Shown: positions 1 through 57,400 of the stretch, one piece after another | How positions within the stretch are numbered: position 1 is the first letter of the stretch | Layout: each line of letters opens with the position of its first letter | NCBI GenBank assembly: GCA_010093605.1 | Contig: MU004181.1 | Location: forward strand, 310,001 to 374,000 | Source: Lophium mytilinum | Taxonomy: Eukaryota | Reading direction: 5' to 3' | Length of the DNA: 64,000 bases | Translations under genes and position numbers: made by a program | The notes under the pieces: model-generated | What the model was told of the DNA's origin: nothing | What the model saw: the letters and a program-made list of their open reading frames with translations, nothing else | Databases searched by the model: none

Positions 1-2130
1 TCGACCTCGTGCACATGGAACCTGTCATTCTATTCCCAAGAAACCCCCGTCAACTAATGCTGGTCTGCTTTTCAAGCATAATCGTGCAACGGCGCTCATA
101 CTCAAATCTGGCACCCGTAGTTGATTCCGCACCCAGGACATCGCCGCTCATACAACCAGTATCACCTCGAACATGCGCGACAGTCCGAGAACCTCCCTTT
201 GCAAGTTCGTCGCCTCATCGCCGTTTCGTTCCTCGTTTCTCGTCCCTCGTCCCCTCAACACCTGGCTACCGCGCTCCACCTCTACACGTTCCCAGAATTG
301 CACCACCACGGTCCTCGTTTGCCCGTCCAAACTTTACGTTCGAAGCCCATAGCATCGCCAATCTCGCATTCAGAAGGGTGCAAAACTACTGAATTAGGGC
401 GTCCGCCCAAATACAACTGCCCCGATGAGGAGGAGCTCGAATGGAGACGGGTCCTCCGCTTCGCTTCGGATATCTCTATGTCTTTCTCCGGCGTTATTGC
501 GGCTCGATACGACCCATCCAATCCTGAGAATATCCATCGGCAGTAGGCTTCAAGATTGAAAGGGCCGGCACTTCGTGGGGACACAATACCAACATTCCAT
601 TTCTTGCGATAGAGCTCGTTCTCAAGCGCCGAGCCGGCATCGTGCTTGGCCACCCGCGAAAAGAGGACATTCTTCGCGCGCACTATAGCCTCATGGCTGT
701 AGGTGGGATGAACACCATGCGCATCCTCGCTCGCTGGAAGCTTCACGACGACCGCGGAGAGCAGGCTGCCGATCGTTTGAGCCGACGTTTCAGCATGACC
801 TCGTGACAAGTTTGTGGAATTCCGTTCACCTGCCGAAGGTGACCGGGATGGCGGCATTGGGCATTGTGAGGGGAGAGGCATTCTTCCGTCTGCGCCTCAA
901 CTTGCGCAGCTTCGACGTCGCCGACAATCGGGTCGCTGACCGTGTGGGGAATCTGTTTCCACTCTTCCTTGAGTTCGTGACGGGTTCTGCTGAAATGGAA
1001 TGGAACACTAGATGAGGTTTGGCTCTGTGTACCACGTCAGATGCTAGGTTGGAAACTCCTTCACGCTGACGGTTTTGAGGATGATGGGGAGGGCGAAACG
1101 GAGGGGAGTGAGGCACAGCATGGTGTGACGGTCACTGAAAACGAGGAAAGAGAAAAGAGACTTCACTCAAGGTTGAGTAGGAGTCATTGAGGGGGTAGTT
1201 TGATGCTGGAAATGTTGTCTTTCTTGCTTCCCTTTCCATCTTTCCTTCGTTTTCTCATGAAAATAGGAAGGTTTCCAGCAGAACTACTCTCCCTTTCATT
1301 CAGGGCCGCAGAATCCCTCGCAAGGAATGCACCCTTAAGATCAGCCTCGTGATGCGCGATGATTGCCAACTAGCTAACACCGTCAACATATTCCTGAGAA
1401 TGCGTAAAGATGGGATGTATACTTCACCGGGGACAGGTTCAGGAATGGAGATGCGTCATTCGCCACACCAATATAGAGGACCTTCGCAAAGACATGGTAT
1501 TTAAGTAAGCAGATGATCTCAGTACTCTCATGTCGATGTTGAAGATTTGGAAATTACCGTAAAGTTCATCACCTTTTACCAGATTTGAAAGCCGCCAATG
1601 ACCTTCCAACGTCGCAAAAGGGCGAACCATTCCGCCTCTGCGATGGGCTCGTATGAAGAAGATGCGAGAATCGTTCCTCTCTAAGAGCAAGGGCTTCCGC
1701 TTCAATGTCGTAGTGTAGCGATCGTCTGCAGTTGGCGACGGGGTTGGCGGCCAGGCTGCGCTGCCGGGGGTGTCCTCCCCGTCTAGCCTACGCCCCAGAC
1801 ATGCCGACCAAGCGCCTATATACAATGGATCAATGGATTCTCATCCTCATCAGAGGTGCCATCGAAGGCTTTGCTGCTGCGCAGCGTAATCCTCACCTGC
1901 CCAGTGCTCCCTCTGCCATACCGCCCGCCCACCGCGGGGGCTCGCCCCAACCCCGTGACCCTCCCCAAAACCCCGATGACGTCCCCAACTCCCCCAAACC
2001 GCACACGGCAAGCACCACACCCGCACCCCGGCTCGGGTGGGGCCTCCCTTCCTCCCCAGTCGCAAATCTCTACCAGGCGTCAGGGCTCCTGCCATATATA
2101 CAGCAACATTCGACGAATCTCCAAATCAAC

Positions 2131-2211
2131 GGTTGAGTGGCGCAGTGGGAGCGCACCCGTCGCTTACTGGGTTGCGACGGGAGGTTGCGGGTTCGATTCC
2201 CGTCTCAGCTC
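2131..2211 (+). tRNA. tRNA-like element (aberrant anticodon arm; probable Pol III promoter/leader, not a decoding tRNA)
   Basis: Acceptor stem GGTTGAG/CTCAGCT. D arm GCGC-AGTGGGA-GCGC with A box TGGCGCAGTGG. T arm GCGGG-TTCGATT-CCCGT with B box GGTTCGATTCC. Anticodon arm is an 8-bp stem CCCGTCGC/GCGACGGG with a 10-nt loop and no U33. TATATA lies about 30-35 nt upstream. Confidence 0.8.
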
Positions 2212-2264
2212 AAGTCTAGGTGCTATGGTCGATGACCCGTCAGCCATAGCACCTAGATTTTTTT
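2212..2264 (+). ncRNA. pre-miRNA-like hairpin immediately 3' of the tRNA-like element, ending in an oligo-T Pol III terminator
   Basis: Perfect 14-bp stem TCTAGGTGCTATGG (2215-2228) / CCATAGCACCTAGA (2244-2257), extendable to about 22 bp with G.U pairs and one mismatch. T7 run at 2258-2264. Confidence 0.7.
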
Positions 2265-2957
2265 CTTTTTGGATTTTTGTTACCAAGCGTGGGGATGGGG
2301 AATCTTTTTTTGTGGTGGAGGGCATTCTTTTTGGTGGGAGGGATGCTTTTTGGTGGGGTGAGGCGGGCGGGGGATGAGGCGGGAAGGTAGGTACGGGGAT
2401 GGGCGGGGGTGGATTGGGGCCGCGGAGGTGCAATGCATCTACTGGCACCACCCCATAAGCGTTTAAAGGTCTAGATAGATGATGCACATGTATTGGGCTA
2501 CCATTTGATTGGTATAGGAGTTCGTCGCTGAGGTGCTCCTCACAGTGGTGTCGTGCGAGCATGGGCGGAGCCCAGGCAGAGAGATATCCGCGTGCCTAAG
2601 AGTCTCATCAAGTGATGTGTGTTAATATGTTAGCTGAAAGCAGCGCTCTTTATATCTACCCTCGCAATAGAGCGTTCTGCAGAGGATCAAGGTTGCTTGT
2701 AGGGAGACACGGTGAGTCTTGCTGGCACCGACGTCAACCACATGATCAGAACACCAGCTGCATCTCACGATACTGATCATAGGTCTCAAGCTTCATTACA
2801 GGCCAAAATAAAGAAGCTCAAGTAATCTAGGATCTCTCGTGGAAGGAATGCATCACCCCAAGTTTGATCTTTCATCCGTCAACCATTTCCGGGCATTACG
2901 CAACATCAGGGTCCCACAAACTTTCCATGACTCGCGCAGATCCTAAGCCCAGAAGAT

Positions 2958-4227
2958 CTAATACAGACAGCGAGAAGTCGGGTGAGCGACATGGGCCACT
3001 ACCCAGAGACGAGCCCGTCTAGGAGTATGCCCTTCCAGCATGGCCCGGTTGTAAACGTCGAAGAGCCCGGGGAAGTCTTCGGCCAGCTTCTTACACCGCC
3101 AGGCAATTTTGAGCGCGTCTAGGTCTTGGGCCGACTGGTTCGTATACACTCCGTCGTAATCCGCTTCGAACCCCAGTCTTCCACTGTTCCTGAGGCCTTG
3201 CAGGTAGAGGCCGATACGCTCAACGAGAGCCCCCACGTACCAAGAGAGGCCTTTGGCAAACCAATCGCCACGTCCGTTCCATTCGTTGTTTGAGTTCCCT
3301 GCAAAGGTGAGCATCTTGAGGGCTGGGGACGCCTCGAGAAGCGCGATAGCCTCCCGAGCGTTCGTCATCGACACGGCATAATCGAGAATGACGACCTTCT
3401 CGATTTTGCGCGCAGGCAGCGTAGTGACCAGGGACGACGAAGCCGCGGGCTTGTAGAGGCGAACGACGTCCGCCCAGTCTCCCTCGGAGTGGGTCACCAG
3501 AGCCCAAAAGCGGTCCTCGACCTCTTTTTCTTCAAAGAATCCCCCCTCATGGTATCCCTTGAAGTGCAGCAGAGTTCTGTAGGTGACGACGGGTGTGGGA
3601 TTCCCAGAGATTGTAAGCACCCATGGTCCCGAGCTTGTCTTGACATATTTTAGGACGCCCGGCTGCTCGTCCTTGAAGATAAAGGTTAGGGTGTTCATGC
3701 GGAGCTCCGCCGGAAGGTCTCTCAAGGGGAAGAGAATGGCTTGTAGTAGGGCAGGGGCGTCGACCTGGTGCTGAATTAGCATGACCACCATCGCGATGCG
3801 GGGAAAATAGGTCTTACTGCGCTGATGATCTGAGAGGCCGCCGCATTGGCCTTGAAGAGGCGGCCATGGCGCTTCACGCTGCGCTTTGGGGTGCTCTGCT
3901 TGCGCGCGCTCTTCGAGACATAGAGGCACTGCGCAGCCTTCGAGAGTCGGCCACGGAAGAGGATGGCTCTCTTCCGGAAGACGCTCGCTTTGAAGTCGAG
4001 TCCTTTGGCATTGCGGGGCGAAGGACGGCGAGTGGCTCCAGCGCGGCAGACAACTTGCGCGGGCATCGTCGTTGACTGTCACGTATTAGACCCAGCGGGC
4101 TCCTAGGCTTTGTTGCTGAAGTACGTACGGGGGAGGCCAGTGGCAGCGGGGCCAAGTCCTGCTCACGGTCTGCGACCATGGCGGCGGGGCTTGGTGAAGT
4201 AGTTTTCGGAGTCAACGACGGGGCCAT
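2958..4227 (-). CDS. F-box-like protein, family A (divergent member), 3 exons
   Basis: ATG 4227. Phase-0 introns 4128-4076 (GTACGT..CTAAT..CAG) and 3817-3771/3765 (GTAAGA..GCTAAT..CAG). Spliced ORF about 387 aa with LRDLPAELRMNTLTFIF motif. Confidence 0.65.
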
Positions 4228-4810
4228 ACTGAGGATGATAGACCTGCGCAGGCGGAGGATGAGGGATTGGTGTGGTGGAGTGGAGGGTAGGGGAAGGAGG
4301 TTGAGGTGGAGAATTTGGCGGCGAGCTGCGGCGGCGGCGCGGGGGTGGTCTCGAGAACGCGTCGGTCACTGGATCAACGACCAAGGCTCGAAGCACTCAG
4401 CATGCCTAGTCACCTAACACAGAGGCCATCATGAAGCACTGTATGAGATAAAGCGAGATATGCTACAGCAATAAGACTTACTTGCTTAACTGATGGAGAT
4501 TGGCTGAAGACGTGACCTGCCATCAAAGTCACGGGGTCTTCCCAACCTACACGATGGTGCGTAGACGTTCGAACTCTAGCTAATCATTCTCGAAAGATGT
4601 GCAGATCGCCTCTTTGATAGCTCAAGAGCAGACAGACTTTAGTCGCCTACGTGTGCTGCAACGCGCATCTATGTTCAAGCAGGCGTACCTATATACCAAG
4701 ACAGTATCGAGCAAGAGCGGGTGTAGTTCGGGGGGATGTTGGTGGGGCTATTCGTAGCACGTGCAGCTAGCCCGGAAACGGTTCGTCAAAACAACGCCCC
4801 ACTCTAAGGG

Positions 4811-4817
4811 TATATAT
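4811..4817 (+). promoter_or_regulatory. TATA box of the U6-like gene
   Basis: TATATAT 30 nt upstream of the U6-like 5' end. B-box-like GGATCGAGCC at 4982-4991 downstream of the terminator, as in fungal U6 genes. Confidence 0.6.
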
Positions 4818-4840
4818 TTACTTTATTTTCGAATCCTCCC

Positions 4841-4943
4841 GCCTTCGGGCATTTGAGTCGTATTGAAACCAGCCGGAGAAGATTAGCATGGCCCCTGCAC
4901 TAAGGATGACACGCCCTATCAAAGAGGTTGCTTCAAATTTTTT
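4841..4943 (+). ncRNA. U6: U6 spliceosomal snRNA variant (ACAGAGA box replaced by CCGGAGA)
   Basis: 5' stem-loop GCCTTCGGGC. Core GAGAAGATTAGCATGGCCCCTGCACTAAGGATGACACGC matches fungal U6. AAAGAG helix II segment and oligo-T end (4938-4946) present. Confidence 0.9.
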
Positions 4944-6623
4944 TTTCTTTTTTGCTTTTGCATGCGTGCGCGAGGGATTGGGGATCGAGCCTTAGAGGCT
5001 GCGGCTTTCTTTTTGTACAAACGGTGCTTTATGTTCTTGTATCTGAGTTCCTGGTCGTTGGCGAGCCGACGAAGGTGCTGCGTTTACCTTCAACACTCAT
5101 CTGATCCACACGATTCTTTTGCTTCTGACCTTTTTACTTCATCGATCTCTTGAGCATGCATTACCCTGGCTGAGTGGTCAGGTAGTTGCAAAACGCTTCT
5201 TTTTGGGTTGAAATTACTGAGGACGTACTTATCCCGACTCGCAACCCAGAACCAGACTAGGCAATAAAAGACATTTACATCACACATCAGCTCTCCTTCT
5301 CTACAGCCAAACTTCAGGAAATAGATCCTGCATCAGCTACATGCTACTGATTCTCAAACACGATGCGCGTCCTCCGTGAAAGCAGTTGTTGTAGCATAGC
5401 GTTTGGCGCTTTCTACAATGTCCGCCGAATCCGCCTCTGGAACGGGAACAACGGATCCGCCTCGTTGATAGAGATGCTAATTGATAATGGGTGGGATCAT
5501 GGTACTCATATACTTCGGCTAGCGCCCCCTTTATCACATTTGGCTCGCAAGAGCGATGCTGGAGTAGCAGAGAATGGTCACTTGCAATGGACGTCAGGGA
5601 AGAATGAGCTGGAAACCGTGGATGAAGGTGAGGTTATATACAAGATAGCTCCCACCGCTACTCCCTAACATTGTCGCATATCCATCGGCGCAGTGCGACG
5701 CTTCTATCGCGATGTGTGACCCCCTTTTTAAGCTCCTCCTAGATAATGTGCCATTCCAGACCATAGATGTTCACAAGCTGTACAAGCTCCTTGACTTAGA
5801 AGTGGTGGGGAGACCCTTCAGGTCGTCGTTGCGGAGGGCATAGTGAAAAGGTAAGGAGCTCATGTTCTCAAATACGAGAGGGACTTCTCGACCCGCTTCA
5901 GGCTCCGTGACGTTCTGGGTCGGCATAGCTTCGTTCCACTCTTCTGCTTCGCCTGAATTTGTAGAAGTGCGTTCAGAGAGCCCGTTGGCGAAAACATTAC
6001 ACGTATCACACGCAACGGCTCGAGCTTGGAAAGGTGATTGCAGCGCATCATGCCAGCGTTCTGCGCCAGATGCGTCAGAGCTGGGCTAGTGAGAGCAGAG
6101 CATGGCGCTGATGCAGAGCTCATACGTCAGCAGTTGGCCTTGTCTAATTGACGAGACGAGGGCATGCTTCTTGCCCCTCCGCTTGTATGGTGATGGCCAC
6201 CGGTGAATGTCGAGTGCATGAATTGCAGCTACGTGGCGTTGGGTTCGATGATATAGCTTGTGTATGGGGAAGAAGAGGTTGATCGGAGAAGGAGTGGTAC
6301 CTACCTGTGTACTTACTATCCGGCCCCTCTACTACCCGTTACTTAGCATGTCGGTATTGCGAAAGGAGGTCGTTGATTAGGAATCGGGCTATGGAAATCT
6401 AATGAACTTCATTCGTAGGCAATTTTCGCGTTAGCACAGAAAGATGTTGATTGTGTAATCTTCATGTGATTGTTGTTTTAGCTACATTCCCTAGAGGAAA
6501 TATGCCATGACTATGGAAAGGGGTGCAGGAGCTAGACCGAGTAATCAGAAAACAGAGAGAGCAGCCTACCTCCTCCCCATCCCCCCTCGCAATGCTCGGC
6601 TTCATGTCCTGAAGCGCAAGAAG

Positions 6624-45480: not shown

Positions 45481-48400
45481 GTAAGTGCCACCCCGCGCCT
45501 TGAAACCGCGCGCAATCCTACATCATGAGTCTGGGCACACGGAATCAGCACTGCTTGGCTGGAGTCCTGCAGACTGAGCGCCGCTGTAAAGGGGAGCCTA
45601 GCTGCCGCGCAGCCGGTCGGTCAAGAGGGGGTCTGATCTTCGCTGCTTGGGCCTCGACATCGGCCGCGAATTCGAGGGACTCCAAGAAGTGGCGGACGAG
45701 TGTGCACAGACTATGAGCTGTCGTTATGATATCAGTGCTAACGACGCGCAGGCCGCTAGACCTCGCTGCGCTCCTTCGGCGTTGGACCTCTCCAAGCGAC
45801 GCACCCGCGCCAGGAGGACCTGTGCCAGTCTTCGCCGAACATGATGTTGGAGCTGCGCTCAGCGAGACGTCCCGCACCAGGAGAAACCTTCCTGGCATCA
45901 CCGAAGACGGTGTTGGATCTGCCCGGAGTGACACCGCGCATGACAGACGTTGATCCGGACGACCTTCCTTGGCGGGAGAAGAACGAATCGCCAACCTCGT
46001 GCCTGCAGAAGTCTATCGAAGTTCCCAGTGCATTTCTCGACCGTGAGGATCCTACGTACGCCAAAGCACGGCAAGACAATGGCGCACCCGCGTCAGAAGG
46101 ACCTGTGTCAGTCATTGCGAAAGACGCCGTTGGAGATGCGCTCAGCGACACGTCCGGCACCAGGACCAACGTCGGCACGGCCGGTCGAGGTGCATTCGTG
46201 TGAATTGTCGCGCGATCATCGGGAAGACAATAACATGCCATCTGTGAAGATGGTTGATATTGGCCGGAAAAGAGTGCGGGGAAAGTCGTGCTTAAGGGGA
46301 AGTGTTGTGCTGGGCTGCGCTCAGCGACATGTCCCGGGTCGAGCTGCTTTCGCCGGACAGACTAGGTGACTACGAGGAAGACAACAACATGCCATTCGTG
46401 AAAATGGTTGATGTTGGCCGGAAAGGAGGGCGGGGAAAGTCGTGCTTGAGGGGGAGATTCATGCTCATCGGGGAAAGTCGTGCTTAAGGGTACGATCCAC
46501 CAAAACCTTCGTCTTCGACTTTGCTAACGTACCATGCCTGCAGACTGGGTTTGTTCGGATGTGGAACATGGCGCAAGAGCTGCGGAGACTTTAGGATTCC
46601 CTTATTCGAAAAGCTTCCCTGTCGCTCACGTTTTGTGCGTGTTGATTTGTTTGCTTGACTTTGCTTGGTTGCTGTGCTTCATGATGTCTCCGTCTCGTTC
46701 TTTTCACATCTTCCTTGCTTACGACCATTGCCCGAAAAGCGTCTCTCCTTGGTACAGTACCGAGACGTAATTCTGGGCACCCGACATAGCACTCCGCCGG
46801 TTCCAATCTTGATCACGCGATGCCACCGTCATTAGTGGCCCGGCCAGCAAGTCGTCGGCAGGTCAAAGGGTTGCCTGTGCAACACTGCATCGAGCTTTAC
46901 GTCGTCTTCGGAGTTACATCGTCTTCGGAGAATCAAAAGCCATAAGCGTACCTGAAGCGGCCCCAGAAACTAAAACCCCCCATGACAACCAAGGTCGCGG
47001 AGCACAACGACAAGAAGGGTATGAAGAATGCCGAGAGGTAAGCGTCTCCCCACAGGAAGAGCAATGTAAGACGAGGAGATGCTGATACCAAAATACTCCA
47101 CCGGGGCCAGGAACGATCGCCCTCGAGAACCTACCACCTCCGTTACCAACCTCCCACCTTGCAACCTGACCGAGCCCCATCCTCATCCCCACAAGGCCAT
47201 GCCTCTGCCTGCCCAGCCGCGACACATCTAACCACCCCGCATCATACCCGCGAAGAAAGCGCGAAATCGGTGTACTTCGAATGCGAGATGGAGAATAACC
47301 ATGTGGAAGATTAGCGACGAGAGAACAACGGGCAACCTACATGCGAGAGTGGGGCCCATTCAAAGAGTGAGCAGAGTCATCGAGGCGGGGACGGAGACGT
47401 GGTTGGACAAATGGATTGCGAACATGAAGGATATACATACCTTGGTAACCTCTCCCCTCCTGGTACAGACTTCGACAAAAGCCGATAGTTAACAGATTGC
47501 AGGTGGATATGAAAAAAGGACTTGAGCGTTGAAAGCAGAGCGACGCAAAAATACCTGCTGCAAAAGAAAGGCGAAGTTCGGATAAAACCAAGTTGGAACG
47601 CTCAGATTGCACGAAATGACTTGACAGCTTGACGTAGTTGATCATCTGTGAGTATGACTGGGAGACAAGGAGACGCGCAGAAGGACTGACTGGTGGAAGG
47701 AATATGACGATACGAAAGCTGAGTGGAAATCATGGTTACCTATACGGCTGAACAAAGTACTGATTGAGTTTGCAGGAGCTCGCATGAAAGAGGGCCTCAA
47801 CAGCAGGTATTCGAAGAACGAGACTAGGATGAAGCCAATGAGGAGATCAGTACGAGACACCTACCTTGACAAGATGAAGCGAGGTCGAGCCGGGGATGAA
47901 ACCCATGAGATGATCAGTAAAAGATGCCTACATTCACAAGATGAGACGAGAACGAGACTGGGATGAACCCGATGAGAAGATCATTACGAGACACCCACCT
48001 TTACAAGATGAAGCGAGATCGAGGCTGGGATAACCCCGATGAGGAGTTGAGTCCGACAGTTGAGTAAGGGACACCCACCTTTCTCAGATCAGAATGGTAT
48101 GCGACAGGCTGACCCCCAAGCAGAAGTTTTTACCTCAAGCATCGCAGCGTTGACACATGGACTGACGTGCAATTCCAAAAGATCATGAGAGGCGCGAAAC
48201 CAGACGAAGAAACGACCTACTAGTACGCATCCCACCCATCAGCCAGAGGCGAGAAAAGAACGCGATCAAACGAAACATCGCCAGAGGATTGGATACTCAT
48301 TGAGCCAGAATGAAGCTGATAGAAACCTACGATCGGGAGAAATGCGACGACCTGAAAGATAAGTAAGACCGGAGAAAGGTACCTGTACATGAGCTGTTAT

Positions 48401-48699
48401 GCTTTGCAGATCCAAAGCGGCGCCGCTAGCATCGTAGAAAAGGTTTCCGCGCATCAAACCTATCCATTCCCACCTGTAGATCAAGAGAGCCATTGACGAC
48501 CACGCCAGAGTTTCGTGAATGACGAGAACGAAAGTTGAGCAAGGACGGAGAGACCTACATTCATACTTGCTGACCTGGCTTGCAGGCCAAACCATCGCCA
48601 ACAAAGTCGCGGAACGAGGGCCTTCGAGCATCAAACTGCTCATTTCCGGAACCCCACTCACCCACTCACCCACTATCGAGGTAGTGGACACATAGACGA

Positions 48700-48862
48700 T
48701 GACGCAAGAGGATCGAGAGCGACGAAAACGACGAGAACGAGGAGGACGGTGAGGACGAAGAAGAAGACGAAAATAACGAAGAGAACGAAAACGACGAAGA
48801 GGACTAAAATGACGAGAACGACGAGGGTGACGAGAACGACGAGGGTGACGAGAACGACGAAA
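48700..48862. repeat. low-complexity GACGA/GAACGA tract with an 18-bp unit repeated about 3 times
   Basis: TGACGAGAACGACGAGGG repeated at 48810-48860. Confidence 0.85.
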
Positions 48863-49499
48863 AAGAAAGCTGAGTAAAAGCAGAGAGACCTCCATGGGTA
48901 TTTACTGATAAGGCTTGCAGGCCCAAAGAAAAAAGGACAAAGACAATGCGAGAGGAAAGAAAATCTAGACCCTGGCCTTCTCACCTTCTTCGGGCCCAAG
49001 GATGAAAAGAAAGACGCTGAGCTCACAAGAGTATCGCAAAAGGAAATTCGAAAGCTGAGTGAGAAGTGCAGGCATTTACCGGATCCATCCACTGACTGAG
49101 ATTTCAGATTCATGAGAACATCGCAGACCGAAGAACACGAGCAGAGATCACTAGCGACTTACATGCGCGACTTGCCTACCGATCGATCGTAGACGGAAAG
49201 CATCACGCGAAAGGAGGTTTCGGATTTGAAGATTGAAAGCTGAGTGGGAAGCTCGAAATCTTACCGAGATCCATCGCTGACTTCACAGTGTAGACTGATG
49301 TGGGAGCTGCTTTAATTTGATTTGAAAGAGCTTATGAGATTGAAGCGGAATTGGATATGGGAACACCTACATTGAGGTAAACTCAAATTGCCAGAAGCTG
49401 AAAAAGAAACGATGATGCTTGGATTTTGCCAAAATCATGCTGATGTCTTCGAAGTACGTTGAGCAGCAAAGACCTACCGCCGTGAGAAAAAATGGGCTG

Positions 49500-49740
49500 A
49501 CTGAAAGCAGGACGCAAAGAGCAGGACCCCTATCGGATACCTTGGTAGCGACGAAGAAAGCAACTGCCGCATGGAATTGACAAGTTGAGAGCAGGACGCA
49601 AAGAGCAGGACCCATACCAGATATCTCGAAAGCGACGTGGAAAGCGACTGCAAGCTGAAACCGACTGATTGGGAGCAGGACGTAAAGAGCAGCACACCTA
49701 CGGGATATCTTGAAATCGACGAAGAAAGCGACTGAAAGTT
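49500..49740. repeat. about 84-bp degenerate tandem repeat x3
   Basis: GCAGGACGYAAAGAGCAG near 49507, 49591 and 49675. Confidence 0.8.
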
Positions 49741-50329
49741 TTGGAACCAAACGACAAAGAAGTCTTTGAGATGGTTTACCGTGAGCAAGAAATGGATATG
49801 GTAGAGACTAACTGGAAAGCAGAAGCGCCTACCTTGGGGAGCAGAAAGCAGATATCGAGAGGACTCGGAGATTCAAGAAGCAAGACACAGAAAGTGAGTG
49901 TAGAGTCGAGATCACCCACCTCCGAGGATCATGAAAAGGAAGCTGGTATATCCAACACAGAAGACCCACCGGGAGACACATAAGACCTACCTGAAGAAGG
50001 TAACGCGGGCCCTGAGTCAAAGGACGAGGGAAAGAAAGAGAGGGAAGTCGAACGATTTACGAATGAAGCTGAGTAGCACGAACCGCACTTACCGTTGCAA
50101 GGAAACTGACGAGCAAGAATGATGACAGCGACAGACCGCGAACTGATACGGAGATCAAATCTTCAGAGAAATATTAAGCAACCGCGGGCAAGGAATGAAA
50201 GGATGGCACTTACCGCACTCACCATTGCAACGATATCGACGAGAAGAGACGACGTTGAAGAAAGACTGCGAGCTGAGTACGGAAATCAAGCCTTTCAAAG
50301 AGGAAAAAGCCACCTCGGGTAAAGATCTG

Positions 50330-51490
50330 AAGGGAACTTGTACCAAAGCTTGACAAGAAAATGAAGCAAAGACGACTGACGCTGGCATAGCCCTGCACAT
50401 AGGAACTTCGCGCCGATCATCCAAATTCACCTACCTTCGAAGAAATCTGATGAGACGACGACGCATAAAACGAGACTTCGAACGGGATGAGAGTTCTGGA
50501 AGGGTTCAAGAACCTGAAAGCGAGAGAAATGGGTTGCTGACCCTGGGAAACATGAGAGCTGACTCGACATTGCTAGGGACGTAAGAAATCCGCGAAAACT
50601 ACTCACATTTACCTACCTCTCAAGCGGAGTGGTACGAGGTGACGACCTGCAGAAAAAGCCTTTGAACGGGAACAGAGTTTTGGAAGGAATCAGAAAGTTG
50701 ACAGAGAGGGACAAGGTAGGTTGAACCCAAGAGACATATATGAAAGCTGACTTGGCATTGCTATGAACATAGGAAATCACTGCGACTAACTGCCTCTCAC
50801 GGGGATTCGGACGAAACGATGACGCAAAGAACAAGATTTCGAACAAGGCGAAAAGGGTTCATGGACCTGACAGCAAGCGATAAGATGGGTTGAACCCAAG
50901 AGACATATGAGAGCTGACTCGGCATTGCCCAGGACATGGAAAATTCGCGCCGATCACTCAGAATCACCTACCTCTTACGAGAATCCGGACGAGACGATGA
51001 CGCGTGGAACGAAGCTTCGAGCGAGATGAGAGATCTGGAAGGGTGCATGAGCCTGAAAGCGAGAGATGAGTTCCGCCAAACCTGAGCAAATGATGAGGGC
51101 TGATCCGGCACTGTCATGGACATAAGAAAGTCACGCCAACGACCTAGATTCACCTACCTATCAACGATTCAGACGAGAAGATGACGCGTAGAACAGAACT
51201 TCGAAAGACATGGAGAGGCTCGGAGGGTTAATGAACCTGGAAGCGAGAGATGAGTGCCGCCAAACCTGTATAAATGATCAGAGCTCACCCGGCATAGCCA
51301 TGGACGTAGAAAATTCGCACCGACCACCTAGATTCACCTACCTATCAGAAATTTCGGATGAGAAGATGACGGTTTGGAGGAGACTCGGACAGGAGGGATC
51401 TGAAAGGGTTTACAAACCTGGAAGCAAGAGGAAAGCAAGGTTCGCTGAACCTGGGAAGCATATGAGAGCTGACTTGGCATCGCCGTAAGC
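50330..51490. repeat. about 180-190-bp degenerate tandem repeat, about 6 units
   Basis: Recurring TYACCTACC at ~50428, 50610, 50965, 51150 and 51335, plus recurring GAGCTGAC..GGCAT and CCTGRAAGCRAGAG blocks. Confidence 0.75.
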
Positions 51491-54400
51491 ATAGGAGATT
51501 CGAGGCTGGACCACTTACTGTCGCGAGAAACCCGAGGATCGGCGAAGACTTCCAAGATTTGAAAGTTGTATCGAGAACACTTACCTAGGAGCAAAATCGA
51601 GGAGCAGAAAGTAGATGAGCACCAAGCTTGGCTAGATATGAGGAAAGCTGGCTTACCAAAGATAGGATGGGACCTGGCCGGCCGGAGGAGATGAAAGCTG
51701 ACTCGGCATGGCCGCAGACAAAGGAGATCGAAACTTGCTCCGCCTACCTTACGGCGGAGATGCGGGAGCTGAAGAGAGATTGAGAGGTCGGTGGATTTCC
51801 AACTGGTTGCGGAGCAAGACTGCGAGTTGAAAAAGAGAGTGAGCATGCCCGCGTGAGGGTCAGAGATCAAACCGTAAGAGAGAAAAAGAAACTGCTGATA
51901 TGGCATCGCCGGACATAGTGATTGTAGGAACCCGCGAACAGAAACCTACCTTCACCTGAGGAATGGATAAACGACGCAGTGAGATCAAACCTTGGTGAAA
52001 GAAATGGCCTCCGACGCGGCATTGCTGGACACAGGAAACACGAAACGTACTGTTAGTCAATGATATTTGGAGGACACGAGCAGAAGTGGAAAGCACAGAC
52101 GAGAGCCTACCGTTATCGAGAGAAGCATGGGTGGGAAATAAGGAGCATGAATCACAGAGATGAGTGAAATGAGATTCGCCGGGCAACCTGGCCACCGCTG
52201 ACTTGATAGGCATTGCCTTGGATAAAGTGAACCACCCACCTTTGACGGAAGACTAACGAAAGGGCGGTGCCCACGAGACGAAGGGAATCGCAGAGATGAG
52301 TGGAAAGAGATTCGCCGAGTAACATGAAGATCGCTGACTTGATATGTATCGCATCGGACATGGGAGATTCCCTACCTTTCATCGGACATCGACGAAGGAA
52401 CGAGATACTGAAGGGGCTGTGCCCATGAGAAGGAAGAAATCACCCACCGCATTCCAAGAAGCGAGCTGACGTAGACGCAAGCAAGACGAGAACGAGAAGC
52501 ACCACAAGGAGTCCTCACCTTTGTTGAGAAGCTGAATATAGAAGAAGAAAAGAAAACAGAAGATGGAAGTGCTGAGGCTAACGGGATAAGAGAATACTCA
52601 CCGAATGCGACCAGGCCGCACGAACTCGATCCCGATAAAAAGGCGATAAACGATTGCCGTGGACATACGGAATGACTTACCGTCTAGGAAAATCGACGGA
52701 GAAGCGCATGAAGATGTGAAGGAAGCGCTGACGGAGGTGTGCGGACAAGAACGAAAAATGGAAGCAGCGCAGATATGCAAGGGCGAAGCCCAACGAGCAA
52801 GCGAGAACACTCACCGGCTATGAGAAATTGGAGTGACGGTGAAATGGTTGTCAAGGATGGATATCCAACGAGGAATGCCTACCTGCGGGTGGTGTAATGA
52901 GTCGATGCCGAGACGATCGCCTCGATGGAAAAGATAAGACACAGAACTCATACCTGCAGAACGATGAGCTGACTCAATAGGGACGAAAGAAATCGAAGAG
53001 GCAACCGAGACAAACGAGATTGCCTACCAGGTGCGCGTAACATGAGAGATGAGGCTTCGCTGACTGCACGGAACGCATAGATCGCTCACCAACTTCAAAC
53101 TCCTACCTGCTGAGCCGGAAATCAATTGATCAGCGATGACAGTAGCGACAAAGAGAAAAGATGCGAAGGAGATCCCCTACCAGGTGTTCGAAATGGACTG
53201 ATGCGGAGAAGGAAATCCGAGAAACGAGCCTAGATTCCAAGACCTCACCTACTCTTGGAAGAGACTGAGCGACGCCGACGGCAATAACGAAGGCCAAGGA
53301 ATGAGAAAGCTCACCCACCAGGTATGCAGAGATTAAGAAGACGAAGCTTGAGGGAGTGCTCAAATACAGACGTAGAGATTGCACTTGGACTTGGAGAACC
53401 TACCTTTCGACTAATGGGGAGCGACTGAAAAACGACGATGGCAAATGCTAGTGAGTCAAAGGAGACGCCTTACCTGGACATTCGAGATGACTGACTGGGA
53501 AATGAAGGTATCCAACTAACGTGGGGAAAGGACTTCAAACCAAAGATCGATCCTAACTTGGGAGCAAGCACGTGACTTGAGGAATGTGGACTGACAAAGA
53601 CAAGGAAGTAGGAGCGGAGCAAGGGGAGCTTACTGGTGAGGGCTGTCAGACGAGCAGAAAAGGAAGGGAAGTCCAACCCAGATCAAAGACTGCGATCACG
53701 AGATTGACACGTGACATAGTCCAATGCCCAGAAGACCGAGAAATTAGGAGATTCTCACCGTTTCAATAGGGAAGAAGACGCTAAGAACTCGACCGCAATG
53801 ACAAGACAGGGAGGCCTTGCGAGGGCCGACTCAGGAGGACGATAAAGCGCCTACCTTTCCACGCTGAGAAAAATGATAGTAGAACCAACTTGTGTGACCA
53901 CGACGAAGGGGATCATACCTGATTTTGGACGTCTGGAATTGAAGGCAAGCACACGAACGCAATGACAGAGAAGCCGAAAGCGTTGACATTTCCAATGGCT
54001 TGGTGCCAGAGAGACAGACATGACGATTACCTTGCTTAGGAAAGATGCGACGTTCGCGGGACAAATGAGATTCTTACCTTTTTTCCAGAACGATGCGACG
54101 GTGGTATGAGATGAACGAAGCATGGCGCTTATCAGAAAGATCTAGGAAAAGGTCACCTCGTTCGAGACACCTGCGACTGTGGACAGGCGACTCGGGCAAC
54201 ACTCTGCAGACAAAGGAGACACTTGCCGTGTGGAAGAAAAGACTGACTGCAAGAATGATGCGACGACGGTACGAGAAGGACACTAGTGAAGGAAGCCCAT
54301 GATACATGTCAGATGCTTACCATGACCAGGGAAAATGCGAGGGTGATGCATTCGTCTCGAATTAACGACATGAGCCGACGGCAGAGAAAGATGTTAGACG

Positions 54401-57400
54401 CCTACCGTGCTGACGAAAAGATGCCGCACTGATGAACACAACGATGGAGGACGATGTCAAGTAGACGTAGGAGATACCCACCGTGGTCAAAAAGGATGTG
54501 AGTAGTTTGGGAGAGACCATGGGTCAACCCGCATGAGACAAAAGAGACACTTACAGTACCAATTGGCACGGATGAAGAGAGCGACAAGGGACAATGCCCA
54601 GAACACTGATGAGAGACGCTCACCGTTCCGGAAGTATGCAACGTCAAGGACACTGAAGGACGAAGAAAGCTTGGCGGATGCTAGGAGAGAGACTCAGAAG
54701 AAACGGTCACCTGGACTGAATACAGGAAGGGTTACGACGGCAACACAGATGACGGAAGAGACCTATCGTTTCTCGGGAGCACGACGACGAAAAGACTTGA
54801 GGAGACGACTTTTTGCAAAGGAAGACACGATTTGAGAAAATGAGAGCGGAGCGAAGTCAAATGACTCAAGAAATCTGACTAGAGTGGGAGCATACTCGAC
54901 CGAGAAGCAGGCATAAACGAAGGAGTTCGAGAATCGAAAAGACAGGAGGTACTTGACCCAGAAGACGTGATGAAAGAATATCCAACTGATACATACATTG
55001 CTTACCTGAAAGACGAGAGACAAACCACGAGAACGTACCGATGGTGGAGACAACATGAAGCACGCTGAGCTGTGAGACGAGATGAGTATGGCGGGTTAGT
55101 GAAAAGTTGAAGGCGGTGGCAATTGGTGCCATCCGAAAACAGACCCAAGGACAGCAGCTGACTTGCCACAGAACTCCGAGGATCCAAAAAGCCGGATGGG
55201 AACGACACCGAAGACATCGTGCAAGCCTGCGGATAGCCGGGATCATTTCGAAGTCCGTGGGTCCATGGTGAATGAGAGAGGCGCCAACGAAAAGGCCTCG
55301 CCGACGCAGGATCAGACGAGAATGCCGAAAAGGAAAACACATACTCCACCAAGACCTTGGCCATGGATGACCAACGCCCATGTCCGCGACGTGGATGTCG
55401 AAAGCACGGTCGTGCTGATAGGGTCCTTGATGCCAGCGAACGGCCACGGGCCATTCGGAACCACGACTGCCGGCACGCCGCAAGCAACTTGAAACAGCAC
55501 TGGCCAGTGATTATGTATGTCCTCGAAGAGCTTGGAAAGCTGGAAGGAGGGTCGTCGACGGGGTTCGACGCGAAATGAGGACGAGGTTCAAAAGAACAAG
55601 ACTGTCACTCGATCTTGATTAGTACGAGATGGAGAAGATGCAGGAGGAGAGAGCTTACCGAGATCAAAAATCTGTTGGAAGAGTGGACCAAATCGAAGAA
55701 AGTGCTCGAGAGGCCAGCAGATATGCCGTGTAAGTTCGCTGACCTGCGCATGCCGCGACATGAAAGCACGGCCCGCCAGAGGAAGACCGCTTGTTCAAAC
55801 CTTGGGTATCATGATCATCATGTTCCCAGGCTAGGTCAGCAAACCCTGAGAGTTTTCCGAGGCTGCTGGATGTTTCGTTGACGCCCAGCCCGGCACGGCA
55901 GACTAGGCATCCAGATGAAGATCCGGTATCTGAGGGACAGCGTCAAGCACACCCGGCCCGAGGCTCAGACTAGGCATCGTGCTGAGTATCCGCGAAGAAA
56001 GACGTGGTGTTGAGGACGCCCAGCCAGAGGGATCAGACCAGACATCGTACTGAGAAGCACCCGTCAGGGACTTGGTGTTGAGGATGCCCAGCCAGACAAG
56101 ACGACCGACCAGACATCGAGCCCCGGCCCAGCACGTACTGAAGGAGTGTACTTCCACGTCCCCGGGCCGAGGGAAATCATGATCGAAGACGTTACTGAAC
56201 GCACTCGAGTGCTGTCGAGAGTCGATGTCGTGGGGACCGCCAGCTCACGCGAGGCCCTCCAGGAAAGAGTCATACCCGGAATCTTCGAGCGGTCCGCATG
56301 GAAGTCGACCTAACGAAGGGATAAAAGAACTCACCAATACTGCTGCCGTAGTGTGTGGTGTTGAGGATCGTCTCGAGCCTGCCGCTGCTTAGACTCTCAG
56401 GGCTGCCGCAAAGACCGGTGGGTGGGTAAGGAGCGTCATCGAGCTGGTGCCTAATGTCGACGCCGTGACAAAGCTGCAGCTGTTAGACGATGCTTGAAGA
56501 GATGAAGAGGTGATGGGAGTGTCAGGGCAGGCGTTGCTGCCCTGGGGTGGATGGGGCTGAGGTCGTTGCTGCTGCCTCTCCACAGCCAGGACGCCCCTGG
56601 CATCAGGAGACGGTGGCAGCGACGTCCAGACATGGCGAGGAGATGAAGGAAGAAGACTTACTTGTGTTTGAAGCTCTGCCGATGATGGCAGAGGCGTTGA
56701 GGACTCGATGAGGTGGGCTGTCGAGTGAGATGACTCGAGGAAGCCGCCGCCTCCACACCCGCCCCTGAGCCCTCCCGTGGGCCAGACACAGCTGGAAGAC
56801 GGTCATATCGAGCTGCAGATGAGGAAGAAGGTGAAGAAGGAGGTAGGGCGGGTTCGTTGTCGTTGTGAGAGGGGGTGAGGGGAGGATGGGTGAGGTGGTG
56901 TTGAGGTTGGGTTTGAGTTGGGGGCCAGAAATTATTTTGGCTTGGCTAGGAACGAGAGGGGCAGCCCATTGCCTCGCAGCCCGGAATGGTATTCACCCCC
57001 CTAATATTGGCTATCCGGACACCGGTATACCTGGAGCAAGGCCATATCATCCTCTGTATTGAGGTCCGAAGACGCCGGAAGGGGTTGTGGAGGTGAAGGA
57101 GTACCGCCGGGCATCGAGACGAGGGACAGCTGGCATGCCAGGGAGCTTGAGCTTGGGCCGTCTCCGCCTCTCCAGCAGCCTCAACACCACGACCCTGGGC
57201 TCGAGCAGTATTAGAAGGAGCCGCTGGAGCTGCAGCAGACCCTGGGCAAGAGGTATGGGCATCACTAATGGCAAAGGGGCAGCTACCGACGGTATTCGAG
57301 CCAGCAACGCCGGCGGGCAGCAGAGAACAGCGAGCTCGATCCCCCCTCCTCACCTCCCTCGAGTCCCTCGACTCCTCGAGACGGCCTGCTGATACCTATA

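Follow-up and report, generated by a model that had tools for sequence, protein, structure and literature searches.

A variant U6 snRNA gene with a rewritten donor-reading box, and its candidate role, in the amplified U6 family of Lophium mytilinum

The ACAGAGA box with which U6 snRNA reads the 5' splice site is described as strictly conserved, and to our knowledge the only well-known U6 paralogue with a box of its own is U6atac. Lesser and Guthrie (1993) and Kandels-Lewis and Seraphin (1993) reportedly found that changes in the U6 box alter splice-site specificity. Comparison of 240 yeast and outgroup species, using the best copy per species, gave an invariant ACAGA, and the central A of the box faces intron position +4 (PMC10581693); in yeast, whose U6 numbering we use, the U6-A47G mutant is viable (PMC4081067; here and below, PMC-numbered sources are cited from the parts of their text that were available). 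U6 methylated by METTL16 carries the motif UACAGAGAA (PMC7927073). Some fungi carry as many as 20 U6 copies, and fungal U6 promoters are flexible, the A block being absent in some cases and not always identifiable; the role of diverged U6 paralogues is described as poorly understood (PMC5855946, with Canzler 2016 as its source for the copy number). The available part of a survey of fungal U3 copies has no diverged paralogue families (PMC5832005). Our literature searches turned up no fungal example of a natural U6 paralogue with a changed box; the fungal survey of Canzler 2016, cited here through PMC5855946, may already record such genes.

The gene described here, L012, lies on the plus strand at positions 4841-4942 of a stretch of 64,000 nucleotides of Lophium mytilinum DNA (the window; GenBank assembly GCA_010093605.1, contig MU004181.1, positions 310,001 to 374,000), in a genome of 43.4 Mb on 49 contigs. 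It is a complete, intronless U6 snRNA gene that the Rfam model RF00026 matched at full length (model positions 1-105) with 62.9 bits (cut-off 44) and an E-value of 1.6e-13, which bears out the U6 identity claimed in a preliminary description of the locus. The U6atac model RF00619 gave nothing over its cut-off among the 45 scored of 1743 candidates and no match at the L012 locus; the internal stem-loop (ISL) is of the U6 type. Contigs built from DNA-read run X1 (covering 1-4905) and run X2 (1-4885), both onward to 10000, had 0 differences from the window; the two runs are one sample, possibly the source of the assembly, and their agreement excludes assembly error, which had been named as a possible refutation of the altered box, rather than establishing independent occurrence. 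The features are as follows.

4811-4816 (+): TATA box, TATATA, at -30, from the sequence.
4841-4942 (+): U6 snRNA gene, variant copy L012, from Rfam RF00026.
4841-4850 (+): 5' stem-loop, unchanged, from sequence, copy comparison and fold.
4854-4865 (+): linker where the internal A box would stand, with 1 insertion and 3 substitutions and no match to the A-box consensus.
4870-4879 (+): rewritten donor-reading segment CAG-CCGGAGA, with A47C and A49G in the box and 2 changes ahead of it.
4880-4914 (+): catalytic core (U2 helix I segment, AGC triad, U6-type ISL, U4-pairing segment), identical to the majority copy.
4886-4910 (+): U6-type ISL, from the sequence.
4926-4936 (+): 3' telestem / U2 helix II arm; its GGUUG, itself changed, is paired in the minimum-energy fold to the CAGCC within the rewritten segment.
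4938-4946 (+): Pol III terminator, a run of nine T, from the sequence.
4983-4991 (+): B-box-like element GATCGAGCC, 41 nt downstream, followed by a second T run at 5006-5014.

Around the box (4865-4887) the letters read GAAAC-CAGCCGGAGA-AGATTAGC, the invariant ACAGAGA being replaced by CCGGAGA with the GAGA that forms the catalytic triples intact. The METTL16 motif is absent from L012 and present in 3 of 21 U6 copies. Judged by its sequence, L012 is therefore a variant U6, homologous to U6 and no standard member, in that it lacks both the invariant box and the METTL16 motif. The preliminary description had spoken of four substitutions in the donor reader next to an untouched catalytic core. 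The core is indeed that of the majority copy and the four changes are clustered, but just two lie in the 7-nt box, two precede it, and L012 has 13 differences overall from the canonical copy L014 and 11 from its nearest copy, L018. It had also taken GAT-ACAGAGA as the canonical form, which is found in 3 of the 21 copies, AAC-ACAGAGA being the commonest (13/21) and the other 5 having a changed box; a canonical U6 elsewhere in the genome, which it proposed to look for, does exist, with ACAGAGA kept in 16 of the 21. As for the promoter said to be preserved, the parts of a Pol III type II gene present at L012 are the TATA box at -30, the B-box-like element and the T run, but the match to the internal A-box consensus has been lost. 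A processed U6 pseudogene (retrocopy) was considered and rejected, as the TATA box and the downstream element lie outside the transcript and are common to sister copies. Elsewhere in the window, a tRNA-like gene stands at 2131-2260 (ARAGORN Ser, anticodon ACT; Rfam 48.4 bits; TATA at about -30) with a long perfect hairpin and a T run directly behind it, low-threshold ARAGORN output was discarded as noise, and the AT skew is strong, reaching 0.35, along some 8 kb at positions 48000-56000.

L012 belongs to an amplified family. At least 21 U6 matches exceed the Rfam cut-off (48 scored of 2221 candidates), pattern searches add two U6 remnants, and a loose end of runs X1/X2 at window position 4924 leads into another U6 3' end, which is of the common fungal type but belongs to none of the 21 copies, so that at least one more U6 copy or remnant must exist. 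The other snRNA matches number 16 for U1 (all below the Rfam cut-off, yet clearly U1 by sequence), 9 for U2 and 6 for U4; spliceosomal introns occur in many of the snRNA copies, and many copies lie grouped together close to contig ends, namely those of C1, C4 and C23. U6 copies have just about 100 bases of flank per side in common, which argues that U6 spread as short DNA cassettes with their promoter and not as retrocopies. TATATA stands at -29 to -31 in 19/21 copies, an internal A-box match in 18/21, and a B-box-like element downstream of the intronless sister copies except L009. Four of the five changed-box copies carry A47C (L010, L012, L013 and L017); all four have a TATA box at -30 and a B-box match, three lack the A-box match, and two, L010 and L012, have a fully unchanged core. 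A box-masked tree puts the A47C copies in two places, with a single clade not rejected (p-AU 0.29), and A47C has accordingly either persisted for long or arisen twice.

Several further peculiarities of the snRNA genes were observed. The motif UACAGAGAA is missing in 18/21 U6 copies, mostly because the majority type has C before the box, and the three copies that have it either lack a TATA box (one) or have core changes (two); the bulk U6 of this fungus may thus be unmethylated, although its core genes are dominated by A+4 donors. An inverted half U6 copy (L022, C1:1758427) lies beside the genome's canonical intron-bearing U6. Introns (loci L042-L063 and L087-L095) interrupt U1 inside its donor-pairing segment, U2 once or twice and all six U4 copies, some of them with GC or otherwise weak donors. 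One U2 copy has a changed branch-pairing sequence (L093) and another lacks it (L095), and five U1 copies (L060-L063 and L047, at C1:86k, 190k and 531k, C4:216k and C2:1692k) have rewritten 5' donor-pairing ends, mostly sitting in the same contig-end compartments as the U6 variants.

Duplexes computed with the genome's own U4 (L054) and U2 (L089) gave L012 the same energies as the canonical copy for U4/U6 (-33.5 kcal/mol each) and for U2 helix I (-5.3 each), with U2 helix II slightly weaker (-10.2 versus -12.7 kcal/mol). The telestem of L012 reaches -9.4 kcal/mol with its own arms versus -3.5 with the consensus 3' arm, an energy that 4-6% of 1215 random four-change variants equal; since the majority 5' arm pairs equally well with the L012 3' arm (-10.1 kcal/mol), the telestem has been kept, not built or improved. 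The minimum-energy fold contains the telestem, reaching into the box, but the centroid does not; taken as a whole, L012 folds no better than shuffled sequences (z +1.3). Telestem arms covary in L007-L009, L011, L013 and L017, whose own 3' arm pairs better than the consensus arm, a pattern that selection or template switching could explain.

Box positions 47-49 stand opposite intron positions +6, +5 and +4, and the CCG of L012 would pair fully with GUACGG and GUAUGG, at two positions with GUACGU, GUACGC, GUAUGU and GUAAGG, and at one with GUAAGU, GUGAGU and GUAAGC. The GUN(C/U)GG-like preference first proposed for L012 thus follows from the base-pairing rules, but no genome-wide intron class goes with it: GTACGG intron patterns number 95 against about 77 by chance (a local expectation from 734 kb of the 43.4 Mb; a reversed-pattern control of 177 was set aside as not composition-matched), genome-wide, 40 donors are complementary out to +10 where the control has 45, and G+6 shows no enrichment near the gene and in the compartments (13/75) versus the core (13/100). 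GTACGT patterns number 513 against about 81 by chance. Predicted donors in the DNA examined, 390 kb from the core and 344 kb from the compartments, are ordinary, and the sampled donors are of the ordinary U2 type. The notion that the genome is unusually rich in introns, with odd donors, was given up; an apparent GTAAGG enrichment (8 versus 1.3 in a first count) came down to 2/100 after reading-frame filtering.

Among predicted introns, C+4 donors were commoner, at 24/75 in the snRNA-rich compartments versus 11/100 in the core (p 0.001), or 15/34 versus 7/51 under a stricter filter. As the comparison was post hoc and about a quarter of the predicted introns are false calls (reversed controls 25 and 19), this excess is a hint only, and it counts the less for L012 because U6 acts in trans. 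The compartment C+4 donors (C1:110-374 kb and C4 samples) are mostly GTACGT, at about three times the core rate. Beside L012 and divergently oriented lies a DUF7730/2EXR-like gene (window 2958-4180, minus strand) with a 53-nt GTACGT intron at 4076-4128; a contig of run X3, probably an RNA run, has this intron spliced out and is otherwise identical in its letters and of the same species. DUF7730/2EXR clusters resembling the neighbour's protein are mostly ascomycete. None of the X3 contig pieces listed reaches over 4841-4876, but with a depth of just about 50-65 even in the U6 core common to the copies, this gap carries no weight for or against transcription of L012. A 322-letter X3 piece was considered as mature U6 from L013, which it fits by mismatch count, and rejected because it runs far past the U6 start.

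The reading that we favour, tentatively and with a probability of about 45%, is that L012 is a live, non-essential variant U6 paralogue with a shifted donor preference, whose transcription, assembly and effect we infer from its letters. The U1, U2, U4 and U6 genes would have been amplified as short self-contained cassettes (the roughly 100 bases of shared flank per side), Pol III would transcribe L012 from its TATA and B boxes despite the damaged A box, and the RNA would enter U4/U6 normally. After activation, C47-C48-G49 would face intron +6, +5 and +4. Donors with G+6 and C/U+4 would then be the best partners of L012, and the common U+6 donors poorer ones. The 16 ACAGAGA copies would do the bulk of the splicing, with L012 a tolerated or mildly favoured minor allele that might help odd donors rather than head a separate intron class. 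Pairing with U4 and U2 is intact and box changes are viable elsewhere, so a box-changed U6 can plausibly work.

The distribution of changes is consistent with a live gene, as the 5' hairpin, GAGA and core, 50 nt together, contain none of the 11 differences from L018 (P 3e-4 for an even spread) and 4 of the 11 are packed into 6 nt (P 1e-3, or about 0.02 allowing for some 17 windows); an even spread is a generous null, since any live U6 puts up with changes in its linker and tail. By contrast, a dead-looking U6 remnant at C1:103k has 3 mismatches in 21 nt of the same core. The L012 flanks are at best 68% and 64% alike to those of other copies, and 48-68% alike to those of the other A47C copies, with 49% in a shuffled upstream control. 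That the changes are "not random decay", as first claimed, is favoured by this distribution, by the TATA and B boxes kept despite diverged flanks and by A47C in three more copies; the claim is weakened by the size of the family, in which a spare copy is far likelier than in a two-gene system because L012 is one of at least 21.

It is accordingly quite possible, if on balance doubtful, that L012 is a dead or dying spare which was an ordinary U6 for long and then suffered A-box loss and a clustered box change in one or two events, its core having been refreshed by gene conversion from its 20 sisters or its decay having gone no further yet. A clustered change can be one mutational event. Other U6 copies are plainly damaged (L011 has a T-run insertion in its ISL, L007-L009 have changes in the core, and two copies are halves), and decay is therefore the usual fate in the family; damaged copies also occur among the 16 U1 and 9 U2 matches, and families of up to 20 U6 copies are known in fungi (PMC5855946). 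The lost A box and the missing genome-wide substrate point the same way, as does the metagenome scan. That single scan, which picks up fungal-type U6 with a non-A at position 47 and is blind to intron-split or ISL-changed copies, returned seven stretches, and CCGGAGA, whose orthologues in relatives the preliminary description suggested seeking, was in 0/7: six are 3'-half copies from another fungal lineage and one is a full U6 with UCUGAGA. The full-length one (L083) has a different 5' hairpin; the half copies (L080-L082, L084-L086) are joined to a conserved GC-rich sequence in six contigs, four of which have a canonical U6 a few hundred bases off in opposite orientation. Viral contigs gave 0 matches to the L012 variant. 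Decay is harder to reconcile with A47C in four copies with diverged flanks, all with TATA and B boxes and two (L010, L012) with unchanged cores, and conversion would have to spare the box yet fix the adjoining core, itself less than 40 nt long.

A candidate substrate for L012 was found in five Pol III small-RNA genes within 264 kb of contig C1, 55-166 kb from L012, in a census covering less than 1 Mb of genome DNA.

C1:148890 (+), 165531 (-), 175651 (-), 178123 (-) and 259527 (-): small-RNA genes (L119, L121, L122, L130).

Each has a TATA box, a front end like that of U6, a 5' hairpin of 9 bp, a B box inside the gene, a T run and an intron-like segment of 37-39 nt, GTGAGGGTGGT...CTRAY...TAG, in which CTRAY and TAG keep a similar spacing in 5/5 genes and the letters between vary. 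The segments begin GUGAGGGUGGU, with the first 8 nt locked in a hairpin. Rfam had no match over the 40 kb holding the five genes, and viral contigs searched for the family gave 2 unrelated hairpins. In the copy at 175651, a 15-nt piece equals the stem-loop II region of the U1 variant L060.

L012 forms 6-7 Watson-Crick pairs of 9, in register, with the five GUGAGGGUGGU donors (single-test p 0.03-0.05, uncorrected), versus 5-6 for the majority and 4-5 for the canonical U6, and its duplexes with them come to -9.8 to -11.1 kcal/mol, versus -2 to -5 for canonical and majority U6. Of 538 other donor-like sites, 6 pairs are attained at 7 and 7 pairs at none. Every A47C copy has an energy of -6.8 kcal/mol or better with the five donors, which no ACAGAGA copy equals, and the U1 variant L063, on the same contig end, also pairs better with them (-10.8 versus -8.7). 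These matches, the CTRAY and TAG kept in all five genes, and a genome that does place introns in its U1, U2, U4 and U6 genes would fit L012 as a dedicated reader of a private intron class, gripping positions +5, +6 and +8 to +11/12 of the buried donors and so enabling their splicing. We regard this as unlikely, the target having been found post hoc after other classes failed, in five genes that are one family and not five tests. Equally good matches occur in 3-5% of 1215 random four-change variants; the four changes in L012 add a pair in two cases, remove one in another and make no difference in the last, and three of the pairs are also formed by most U6 types. Splicing of the segments is itself a prediction, and they are shorter than the U6 introns of this genome (48-51 nt); since the UGGU of these donors resembles the U6 linker, the match may be a by-product of shared ancestry. 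The GUGAGGGUGGU segments are best regarded as candidates, the sharpest test of donor reading by L012 rather than its established targets. There is likewise a small chance that a private splicing set is evolving from spare major-spliceosome snRNAs, with A47C U6 copies (L012 the most extreme) and U1 copies with rewritten 5' ends jointly reading G+6/C+4 donors that would include the GUGAGGGUGGU mini-introns; if so, L012 would be a suppressor U6 of natural origin, and a split like that of the minor spliceosome would be at its first step.

Much less probable is that L012 yields a transcribed non-catalytic RNA, acting by titration as a decoy for U4, Prp24 or Lsm, or by blocking as an antisense partner of the five small RNAs. 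Its U4 pairing and telestem are intact, the latter extending into the box, with the substrate reader altered, and it does pair strongly with the small-RNA family; but a decoy has no need for a perfect AGC triad, GAGA and U2 helix I, and a genome-wide search for a long antisense target found none, the 22-mer at 4855-4876 having its single occurrence at its own locus when up to 3 mismatches are allowed. An assembly error, with read-derived contigs identical letter for letter, or a U6atac of the minor spliceosome, of which an altered box is a hallmark, with the full U6 model fitting and the U6atac model giving nothing over its cut-off among the 45 candidates scored, is barely credible.

With four A47C copies, intact cores and a candidate substrate, the function of diverged U6 paralogues becomes testable in this fungus. 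If L012 is active, it shows how a duplicated and drifting snRNA reader can give rise to a second spliceosome specificity; if it is silent, it cautions that U6 variants which look intact come about as by-products when snRNA genes are amplified.

Among known systems, L012 is nearest to the major-spliceosome U6 of filamentous ascomycetes (RF00026), with which it has in common the 5' hairpin, ISL, AGC triad, U4/U2 pairing, TATA box and downstream B box, and from which it differs by the CCGGAGA box, the lost A box and its coexistence with 16 ACAGAGA copies. U6atac (RF00619) is likewise a U6 paralogue with a changed donor-reading box beside canonical U6, but L012 has no U6atac match, retains the 5' hairpin of U6, has the ordinary U4 and U2 as pairing partners and is without a matching intron class genome-wide. 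Human variant snRNAs (the variant U6 of Tichelaar et al., via PMC5855946; variant spliceosomes, PMC8457000) are diverged paralogues in large families, some of them expressed and, going by the title of PMC8457000, assembled into spliceosomes, U6 genes being left out in the available part of that source. The U6 of Cyanidioschyzon merolae (ACUGAGA) has, like L012, a natural change at the central A facing intron +4 (PMC10158995, PMC10581693); there the change fits the GUAAGU donors of the species (PMC10158995), whereas L012, a minority copy, has two changes in its box and lacks a bulk substrate. The mechanism proposed for L012 is that of the suppressor U6 mutants, which are laboratory constructs, whereas L012 is a natural gene.
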